Source of the DNA: Escherichia coli
GTDB taxonomy: Bacteria; Pseudomonadota; Gammaproteobacteria; Enterobacterales; Enterobacteriaceae
Length of the DNA: 64,000 bases
Direction: 5' to 3' (one strand)
Assembly: GCF_024502345.1 (NCBI RefSeq)
Contig: NZ_JALDNN010000001.1
In this document: positions 41,740 through 47,201 of the stretch, in pieces
How positions within the stretch are numbered: position 1 is the stretch's first letter
Layout of the letters: every line of letters starts with the position of its first letter
The notes under the pieces: model-generated
The model's database searches: none
What the model was told of the DNA's origin: nothing
Seen by the model: the letters and a program-made list of their open reading frames with translations, nothing else
Program-made: the position numbers and the translations under genes

Positions 41740-44743
<3,004 letters not shown>

Positions 44744-45268
44744 TTGTCATCCCTCCTCAGGGACATAATAAGTTGATCCATCAATTATCAATGCATAGAA
44801 AACATATTATGTTTCGCGTTGACGATTATGCGGCGTTATAGAGGAATGGTTCAATTATTCTTTCCCCTAAGTCCGATTGCGGACATATATAAAGCACGTG
44901 AACACACACACAGAAATAAATAACAAAAACACAATATTTCAATACGTTAATGAAAGCGTTAATTTTAAAACATAGACCATGAAAATATAAAACAACTAAA
45001 ACAGACAAATAATGTATCAATAAGCAATGAACTTTAAGTTATTCACTTTTTGAAAACGTCACCAAATCCCCAAAAACAATAATCTATGGCTATAAATAAA
45101 AATTAAAAATATTTTCAGTGAATATGAAATTATTGCTATTTCTATTACAAAGATGTCCTGGTCTCTCTTTCATTCTCTTCTTGTCAACATCACGACAACT
45201 TTCGTAAAACACTCCTGCCCCGCTTCAGGTATACTGTGCACCTTAATTCCACAAACATCAGGCAGACC

Positions 45269-46243
45269 ATGACAGACTTAATCCAACGCCCTCGTCGCCT
45301 GCGCAAATCTCCTGCGCTGCGCGCTATGTTTGAAGAGACAACACTTAGCCTTAACGACCTGGTGTTGCCGATCTTTGTTGAAGAAGAAATTGACGACTAC
45401 AAAGCCGTTGAAGCCATGCCAGGCGTGATGCGCATTCCAGAGAAACATCTGGCACGCGAAATTGAACGCATCGCCAACGCCGGTATTCGTTCCGTGATGA
45501 CTTTTGGCATCTCTCACCATACCGATGAAACCGGCAGCGATGCCTGGCGGGAAGATGGACTGGTGGCGCGTATGTCGCGCATCTGCAAGCAGACAGTGCC
45601 AGAAATGATTGTTATGTCAGACACCTGTTTCTGTGAATACACTTCTCACGGTCACTGCGGTGTGCTGTGCGAGCATGGCGTCGACAACGACGCGACTCTG
45701 GAAAATTTAGGCAAGCAAGCCGTGGTTGCAGCTGCTGCAGGTGCAGACTTCATCGCCCCTTCCGCCGCGATGGATGGCCAGGTACAGGCGATTCGCCAGG
45801 CGCTGGACGCTGCTGGCTTTAAAGATACGGCGATTATGTCGTATTCGACCAAGTTCGCCTCCTCCTTTTATGGTCCGTTCCGTGAAGCTGCCGGAAGCGC
45901 ATTAAAAGGCGACCGCAAAAGCTATCAGATGAACCCAATGAACCGTCGTGAGGCGATTCGTGAGTCACTGCTGGATGAAGCCCAGGGCGCAGACTGCCTG
46001 ATGGTTAAACCTGCTGGAGCGTACCTCGACATCGTGCGTGAGCTGCGTGAACGTACTGAATTGCCGATTGGCGCGTATCAGGTGAGCGGTGAGTACGCGT
46101 TGATTAAGTTCGCCGCGCTGGCGGGTGCTATAGATGAAGAGAAAGTGGTGCTCGAAAGCTTAGGTTCGATTAAGCGTGCGGGTGCGGATCTGATTTTCAG
46201 CTACTTTGCGCTGGATTTGGCTGAGAAGAAGATTCTGCGTTAA
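45269..46243 (+). CDS. hemB: porphobilinogen synthase (delta-aminolevulinic acid dehydratase)
   Basis: Track ORF 45236..46243; recognised N-terminus [28 protein letters not shown] at 45269 gives 324 aa. Confidence 0.95.
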
Positions 46244-46293
46244 TTTTGTTTCCTCTCAGAAAGGGGGAGTTAACCTGTTGAAAGTACGGTGAA

Positions 46294-46334
46294 CGCCCCC
46301 TCACCCTAACCCTCTCCCCAAGGGGGCGAGGGGA
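46294..46334. repeat. GC-rich palindromic intergenic element / probable bidirectional terminator
   Basis: CGCCCCCTCACCCTAACCCTCTCCCCAAGGGGGCGAGGGG; CGCCCCC pairs with GGGGGCG; between convergent hemB and tauD. Confidence 0.5.
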
Positions 46335-46349
46335 CCGTCCACTCTCGTA

Positions 46350-47201
46350 TTACCCCGCCCGATAAAACGGTTTATCCCCAAGAATCGTCGCCCGATGCAT
46401 TATCCGTCGCTGTGGCAGGTAATCGGCATTGGCATAGTGCTGGGTCACGCGGTTATCCCAAATCGCAATATCATTTGGTTGCCAGCGCCAGCGCACCTGA
46501 AACTCCGGTTTGGTGATATGGGCAAACAAAAAACTTAACAAGGCTTCGCTCTCTTTCTCGCTCACATCAACAATTCGCGTAGTAAAGCCTTCATTCACAA
46601 ACAGCGCCTGTTTACCGCTCACCGGATGCGTTCGCACCACCGGATGTAGCAACGGCGGGTTTTTCGCGACCGCCTCGCGCCAGCGTTGATGTTCCTCCTC
46701 GGTTTTGCGGTATTTGTATTCCGGGAACGATTTACGAAAATCATGCTCCGCACGCAGCCCGCTCAGCAGCTGGCGGAAGGGAACAGAGAGCGCCTCATAG
46801 GCCGCAATACCGCTGGTCCAGAGCGTATCGCCGCCGGTCGAAGGTAACTCTTTCGCTGCCAGAATCGCCCCTGCGGGTGGCGTTTCAATAAATGTCACAT
46901 CGGTATGCCAGTTGTCGTTATCCGGCGGATTATCGTTATGGGTATCCAGCACGATGATCTCGTCAACCCCTTCAGCATGAGGGTAAACAGGGTGAATATG
47001 CAGTTCGCCAAAACGCTGGGCCAGCGCGCGTTGCTGCAGCGGCGTAATGGCTTGATCGCGCAGAAACACCACCTGATGGCGCAGTACCGCATGGTAAAGT
47101 TGTTCAAACTGATTATCGCTTAACGGGCGCGTCAGGTCGGCACCCGAAATTTGTGCTCCGATATACGGCCCCAGCGGGGTAATGCTCAGACGTTCACTCA
47201 T
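46350..47201 (-). CDS. tauD: taurine dioxygenase (alpha-ketoglutarate dependent)
   Basis: Track ORF 283 aa, [39 protein letters not shown]... Confidence 0.95.

Follow-up and report, generated by a model that had tools for sequence, protein, structure and literature searches.

In Escherichia coli, flanking DNA hitch-hikes with hypervariable surface-antigen loci, as gnd does by the O-antigen cluster. Allsopp and colleagues reportedly described, in 2012, H-NS repression of the adhesin gene upaC. That work is the source given in PMC5012682, where H-NS is named, at second hand, as repressing upaC in UPEC. A single gene exists in an EhaB and a UpaC form (PMC8281228), and SeaB/EhaB phenotypes have been reported on overexpression only (PMC13248724). 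Next to ehaB, yaiV/iprA is marked as bound by H-NS in K-12, SE11 and SE15 (PMC4720273 supplement), and our literature search found no paper joining yaiT with H-NS. H-NS-bound upstream gaps diversify faster than others in E. coli, with medians of 0.016 vs 0.0067 (Higashi et al., 2016, PMC4720273); that analysis excluded gaps longer than 300 bp, and the gap between hemB and ehaB is therefore not in it. Finally, alternative intergenic variants located between conserved genes are known as switched intergenic regions or horizontal regulatory transfer, according to the account of Oren et al., 2014 given with the Piggy software (PMC5890482).

The window analysed here, meaning the whole 64,000-nucleotide stretch of E. 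coli DNA, contains one such gap between conserved genes, in the order iprA, ehaB/yaiT (− strand), gap, hemB (+ strand), tauDCBA (− strand). The window has a match in 5,423 of 5,426 complete genomes, the top match being strain FDAARGOS_943 at 99.8%, and the K-12 arrangement is yaiT, a 523-bp gap (388952–389474 in U00096.2) and hemB. We found that the gap consists of three modules, a hemB promoter, an AT-rich core, and an ehaB promoter with its leader, which together with the flanking genes give the following features:

41761–44743, − strand: ehaB/yaiT autotransporter adhesin gene, a pseudogene here, present as two ORFs split by a 4-bp insertion at 43460–43463
44744–45268, no strand: the whole divergent intergenic region between hemB and ehaB/yaiT/upaC, 525 bp, 33% GC
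44744–44818, − strand: 5′ leader predicted for ehaB, ~75 nt, its SD GAGGAGGG at 44758–44751
44825–44854, − strand: predicted sigma-70 promoter of ehaB/yaiT, −35 TTGAAC at 44854–44849, N18, −10 CATAAT at 44830–44825
44885–45105, no strand: hypervariable AT-rich core, ~24% GC, class I in the window, one of at least five discrete allele classes
45200–45242, + strand: hemB promoter, with block TTTCGTAAAACAC at 45200–45212 (−35 region), −10 TATACT at 45230–45235 and TSS at 45242
45269–46243, + strand: hemB, porphobilinogen synthase, 324 aa

The earlier note on this DNA had described a 525-bp AT-rich gap with poly-A/T runs between the divergent starts of yaiT and hemB, and each part of this description held. 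In matching E. coli genomes, RefSeq lists ehaB or an autotransporter at one end of the gap and hemB at its opposite end, and the gene names in the earlier note are correct. The start codon of ehaB/yaiT (CAT on the + strand) occupies 44741–44743 and the hemB ATG 45269–45271, which places the two starts on opposite strands and leaves exactly 44744–45268 between the divergent genes. GC content is 0.330 in the gap vs 0.518 in the window, where 525-bp stretches of such low GC make up 0.26% of the total; the minimum, 0.316, lies at 44687–45211 and overlaps the gap. The centre of the gap (44900–45120) falls to 24.4% GC. Runs of five A or T bases lie at 44925, 45047, 45072, 45098 and 45105, and tracts of at least four (A4+/T4+) reach a density of 48.8 per kb in the core vs 9.7 per kb in the window.

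On the adhesin side, the 4-bp insertion shifts the reading frame, which then meets a stop after 444 codons. Apart from that insertion, only 14 substitutions in 2,979 bp separate the window ehaB from the allele of 2014C-3599, which is intact with 993 codons (992 aa), and in CFT073 an intact 995-aa autotransporter adjoins hemB. Mobile DNA was also seen at the locus, namely IS3 in K-12 yaiT, IS2 in FDAARGOS_943, IS1 in 4848 and O121, an IS3-family element in EC26, and a Tn3 fragment in GENOMIC23-001. These repeated mobile-element hits in six strains suggest that the adhesin gene is often inactivated.

On the other side of the gap, the hemB promoter is a compact sigma-70 promoter. In K-12 the hemB TSS maps to 388978(−) in U00096.2, giving a 27-nt 5′ UTR, and the sequence upstream of it reads ...TTTCGTAAAACA...CAGGTATACT... 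(Kim et al., 2012 supplement, PMC3415461). This TSS transfers to 45242 in the window, the promoter sequence is identical at 45230–45242, and the −10 hexamer TATACT lies upstream of the mapped start. The block at 45200–45212, TTTCGTAAAACAC, is kept across genera (33 sequences, about 10 genera). In strain 4848, a blood isolate, an IS1-mediated deletion took ehaB and the gap up to 45218, so that the last 51 bp stay, and hemB is intact despite the loss of the whole AT-rich core. Because this strain keeps hemB after the core deletion, hemB has no need for the AT-rich tract. The core is likewise dispensable for viability in a second strain, GENOMIC23-001. The earlier note had set H-NS-type composition against the essential hemB gene sharing the region; this contrast dissolves once the promoter is placed in the last ~70 bp, with a TSS 27 nt before the ATG, and strain 4848 is seen to be viable.

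Two further observations concern hemB. At the deletion junction of strain 4848 (L006 3960–4020), a TTGGCA contributed by the end of IS1, in its terminal repeat, lies 18 bp upstream of TATACT at hemB, and from its sequence the combination of IS1 end and TATACT looks like a ready-made hybrid promoter for this essential gene. Within the hemB 5′ end, the 14 E. coli loci compared have zero nucleotide diversity over ~125 bp (45281–45405), even at synonymous sites, unlike in the remainder of hemB, where it is 0.003–0.05.

The ehaB side of the gap is also strongly conserved. The predicted promoter, TTGAAC-N18-CATAAT, scores 9/12 against consensus, and the predicted ehaB TSS lies near 44818. The scan returned two promoter-like sites vs 3.1 expected, one of them this conserved promoter. 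Both of its hexamers are at least 95% conserved (33 sequences, about 10 genera), as are the signal-peptide codons of ehaB and the leader at 44744–44800, a stretch that is nearly invariant between genera. At the four-fold sites of hemB, by comparison, E. coli and Citrobacter are ~45% apart, yet the ehaB leader and promoter stay at least 95% conserved. Diversity in E. coli is at most 0.01 over 44685–44810. Folding of the leader RNA revealed nothing unusual (z = −0.94). Two symmetric elements were found on this side of the gap:

44773–44784, no strand: perfect palindrome TTGAT-CC-ATCAA (TTGATCCATCAA) in the ehaB leader, followed by TTATCAAT, conserved across genera
44871–44884, no strand: inverted repeat GTCCG-N4-CGGAC, centred ~60 bp upstream of where ehaB transcription is predicted to start

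The palindrome and TTATCAAT together span 44773–44792. The inverted repeat is partly conserved between genera, and class II reads TGGAC. The leader palindrome is a possible operator, and it and GTCCG-N4-CGGAC are candidate regulator sites, perhaps for IprA/YaiV, which is encoded next door.

What the earlier note missed is the main structure of the gap, a hypervariable allelic core between two conserved promoter modules. We compared six E. coli gaps, 14 loci, and 33 sequences from about 10 genera. Mean pairwise difference is 0.018 in hemB, 0.053 in the hemB-proximal gap and 0.233 in the core; it is 0.031 across the island formed by the leader and signal peptide, and 0.35 in the passenger domain. 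The core classes differ from one another by 22–34%. Class I comprises the window, FDAARGOS_943, Ch1, CFT073 and RMDEC465; class II comprises K-12, 2014C-3599, 14EC017, O121 and NCCP15648; class III comprises O157:H7 and 2009C-4687; and classes IV and V are represented by CFSAN061771 and wlxctx60, respectively. A sixth core type was observed in the divergent ‘E. coli’ SCPM-O-B-8794 (GTDB representative). Its hemB four-fold sites lie 0.24 from the window, the same distance as those of E. whittamii, and it is probably a cryptic Escherichia lineage, not E. coli proper.

When the class I core was used as a query against the 5,426 complete genomes, 1,506 carried a match at 95% identity or above, 57 at 80–95% and 3,667 at 60–80%, a strongly bimodal distribution. 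Queries with classes II, III and IV recovered about 3,170, 407 and 304 of these genomes, giving frequencies for classes I–IV of roughly 28%, 58%, 7.5% and 5.6%. The core is single-copy in each genome, which rules out a repeat or mobile element. Alleles of the classes align collinearly at 66–78% identity with 0–3 gap positions, and scattered invariant motifs are common to these collinear variants.

For the same strains, the hemB four-fold-site distance is 0.031–0.049 vs 0.22–0.34 between core classes, and the core alleles have diverged as much as different Escherichia species have at neutral sites. Local hypermutation was considered as the cause of core divergence and rejected, given the distances within classes: the window and CFT073 differ by 0.02 in the core and 0.08 at hemB four-fold sites, and O157 and Escherichia sp. 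E1V33 by 0.09 and 0.08. Because within-class core divergence is about equal to or below four-fold divergence, the pattern is one of old alleles, not of raised local mutation. The O157 core is 9% from that of Escherichia sp. E1V33, 16% from that of E. whittamii and 31% from that of K-12; by these sequence comparisons, core alleles cross species lines within Escherichia.

Core alleles are also unlinked to their surroundings. Distance matrices for core and passenger domain are uncorrelated (Spearman 0.04), the corresponding values are 0.11 for core vs hemB and 0.05 for core vs the hemB-proximal segment, and every allele combination was seen. An identical passenger was found with cores I, II and IV; for example, the window passenger equals that of 2014C-3599 over the 1.2 kb compared, and the 2014C-3599 core is class II. 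Conversely, CFT073 has a core like that of the window (98% identical) and a passenger that is 48% different. The hemB-proximal segment has two haplotypes of its own, likewise unlinked. Since core, passenger and hemB-proximal alleles are all unlinked, we conclude that the locus is a mosaic recombining at its conserved modules.

Such a distribution could arise if the core alleles were functional regulatory variants, maintained by balancing or niche selection and spread by horizontal regulatory transfer, that fix, class by class, how strongly or under which condition the adhesin or hemB is expressed. The classes are discrete, with few intermediates (the 57 genomes at 80–95%), several species have alleles in common, and the distribution is incongruent with the flanking segments; class-specific SNPs also fall between the two hexamers predicted for ehaB, and switched intergenic regions elsewhere go with expression differences (PMC5890482). 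However, ehaB is a pseudogene or IS-disrupted in the window, K-12, FDAARGOS_943, O121, EC26 and 4848, and strong selection on its regulation is disfavoured because the gene is so often lost in this way. Moreover, old alleles could be retained simply because they are linked to a passenger domain that diversifies. We regard functional variants as unlikely.

The earlier note ascribed the composition of the gap to H-NS-bound, silenced promoters of surface-protein genes. The composition is indeed typical of H-NS targets, at 33% GC over 525 bp and 24% over the 220-bp core in a window of 51.8%, and the CFT073 upaC gene, which H-NS is reported to repress, stands behind a core 98% identical to that of the window. 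For the upaC form of this locus, silencing by H-NS was in essence already in print. Transcription start mapping, which the earlier note had proposed as a check, offers indirect support. Among the + strand Cappable-seq TSSs of K-12 (U00096.2), no yaiT-sense TSS is listed between 388394 and 389570, and there is therefore none in the K-12 gap. A weak sense TSS (score 1.8) does appear at 389570 (+, U00096.2), ~95 bp inside yaiT, and may come from spurious promoter activity within the gene, the DNA there being AT-rich and of H-NS type.

The check on curvature came out the other way, as the A-tracts lack helical phasing at periods of 9.5–12 bp (p = 0.24 and 0.78). The high-affinity H-NS motif TCGATAAATT is not enriched, with two matches at up to two mismatches, and no site for the IHF consensus WATCAANNNNTTR was found in the gap. 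A nucleation motif and phased A-tracts are common in H-NS targets, not obligatory. H-NS silencing of ehaB at this gap is plausible, and its support is indirect.

Our preferred explanation, which we consider probable without being firmly committed to it, is that the gap is a shared control region of three modules in which an AT-rich spacer acts as an H-NS platform that silences the adhesin, and in which the spacer exists as old, recombining alleles. Under this explanation, hemB is driven by a compact, constitutively used sigma-70 promoter within the last ~70 bp, and the adhesin gene ehaB/yaiT/upaC has a conserved predicted promoter and ~75-nt leader within the first ~110 bp. The intervening spacer of ~220 bp and ~24% GC would most likely serve as a platform for H-NS nucleation and spreading. 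From this spacer, whose occupancy we infer, H-NS would silence the adhesin promoter in laboratory conditions and stop short of the hemB promoter. Because H-NS reads composition and not sequence, selection would keep the AT content and length of the spacer but not its bases. With the bases free of selection, several very old spacer alleles could persist in the species, which is the inferred reason for their age. Homologous recombination at the two conserved modules would then shuffle spacers independently of the equally variable passenger domain.

What the core retains over longer distances bears on whether it has any function at all. Gap length is 522–525 bp in 17 of 17 Escherichia sequences. 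In 25 loci of other genera the gap measures 439–617 bp at 31–44% GC, and the 200-bp GC minimum is 18–28% in all 29 loci of other species-level genomes (25 of them outside Escherichia). For 44911–45110 and the orthologous cores, 43 sequences in about 11 genera, A exceeds T on the hemB-sense (+) strand in every one, and C exceeds G in 40 of the 43.

A simpler account would have the core as a functionless spacer, its AT content due to mutational bias, its alleles hitchhiking with the passenger domain, and any H-NS binding incidental. This would fit with the lack of columns conserved across genera in the core (33 sequences, about 10 genera), with the dispensability of the core, with the hypervariability of the adjoining passenger domain, and with within-class divergence at or below the neutral rate. 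It sits poorly with the persistence of an AT-rich gap and strand bias in the 43 sequences even though the sequence is saturated, with the constant length in Escherichia, including indels of −1 and +1 that offset one another in the class III core, and with the lack of linkage between core and passenger alleles. In addition, the window has just one other stretch as AT-rich as this, and there the A>T and C>G strand bias is lacking. We therefore find a functionless core quite unlikely.

The H-NS platform that we prefer does not account for everything either. H-NS is not known to prefer either strand, and the A>T, C>G bias is left unexplained by H-NS for that reason; nor is the constancy of length at 522–525 bp in Escherichia obviously explained. 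A bolder proposal, which we rate as distinctly improbable, is that the core is an orientation-dependent, composition-encoded element whose alleles are silencing settings under balancing selection, exchanged as cassettes via the promoter modules. If orientation-dependent reading were true, then length, AT content and an A/C-rich hemB-sense strand would be selected across about 11 genera while the bases remained free.

We also considered whether the core is read as RNA or protein or switched by its repeats, for which the following features are relevant:

44826–45020, − strand: 64-aa TTG-start ORF, not a gene, found only in the window, Ch1 and CFT073
44902–44912, no strand: CA run ACACACACACA (given as ‘CACACACACA’ in the earlier note), whose allele differences are substitutions

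The 64-aa ORF is missing from RMDEC465, which is also class I, and from all other classes. Its presence in only some class I alleles, together with core substitutions that carry no 3-base codon periodicity (p = 0.30), bears out the suggestion that it is non-coding. Other ORFs of 30–91 aa do occur in various alleles (82–91 aa in class II), and the conserved strand bias could reflect transcription, both of which would be expected if the core encoded a small protein or sRNA. However, no ORF is common to different core classes, the substitutions lack the codon signal noted above, and an Rfam scan of 43000–47000 on both strands gave no match at E up to 1. Furthermore, the K-12 gap is without a yaiT-sense TSS and has only the hemB TSS on the other strand (Kim 2012), and K-12 RefSeq is empty there, though small proteins such as ytiB are listed nearby. 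A coding or sRNA function is thus very improbable. Separately, a 39-aa ATG ORF at 45153–45272 (+) ends in an ATGA overlap with hemB and is present in most Escherichia alleles. It was rejected as a candidate, as its start codon lies upstream of the TSS mapped for hemB, CFT073 and RMDEC465 lack it, and it is not conserved between genera; it is probably spurious.

The CA run noted earlier is real, but its position had slipped by 10 bp, the run occupying 44902–44912 rather than 44893–44902. Since a surface-protein gene is preceded here by a (CA)5 run and by several A5 runs, one of which (poly-A at ~45072) ranges from A3 to A9 within class II, these runs might be taken for slipped-strand phase-variation tracts that switch the adhesin promoter on and off. 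Against this, the CA run differs between alleles by substitution and not by copy number, no copy-number change was found for it between close genomes, and it is missing from the other classes. Among the class I matches listed, 18 of 18 span exactly 216 bp. The tracts also lie 80–250 bp upstream of the predicted −35, outside the promoter spacer, and we find phase variation here barely credible. A terminator-like hairpin at the CA run was set aside as specific to class I.

The locus has several uses beyond its own regulation. The gap could serve strain typing, as a core-genome position at which more than 5,400 genomes carry 4–6 recombining alleles of deep divergence, and the same allelic core can introduce spurious divergence into alignments and into pan-genome calls on intergenic regions. 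It is also a natural experiment on whether H-NS platforms are constrained in composition only. Finally, the ehaB leader palindrome and the core strand bias are leads to how a widely conserved, rarely expressed adhesin is switched on.

Set beside the systems described at the outset, the locus resembles the H-NS-silenced upaC, upaH and upaG promoters, as these are summarised in PMC5012682, in having an AT-rich region upstream of an adhesin that is not expressed in laboratory culture. It is the same locus as CFT073 upaC, with the same class I core allele; unlike CFT073 upaC, the window ehaB has an ehaB-type passenger and is frameshifted. As in the regions studied by Higashi et al. (PMC4720273), the position and composition of a putatively silenced region are conserved while its sequence diverges. 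In contrast to their median of 0.016, the core reaches 0.233 and falls into discrete classes that cross species, and this speaks for old alleles over a mere increase in rate.

Switched intergenic regions, as outlined in PMC5890482, have conserved flanking genes, variants of less than 90% identity and a distribution incongruent with the flanks, and we found the same here, with at least five classes differing by 22–34% between hemB and the conserved ehaB 5′ end. In this locus, however, switching is confined to the central 220 bp, whose variants are diverged homologues that align collinearly, not unrelated replacements. Only the relaxed ‘<90% identity’ definition fits, and not the strict one of no detectable similarity (PMC5890482). 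The gap resembles the hitch-hiking of gnd with the O-antigen cluster in that deeply diverged alleles lie beside a segment under diversifying selection (passenger 0.35), and differs from it in having a nearly invariant 200-bp island, made up of signal peptide, leader and promoter, between the variable segments and alleles that are unlinked. What the locus adds to the known picture is modest, namely an allelic core, an ultra-conserved ehaB leader and a conserved strand bias.
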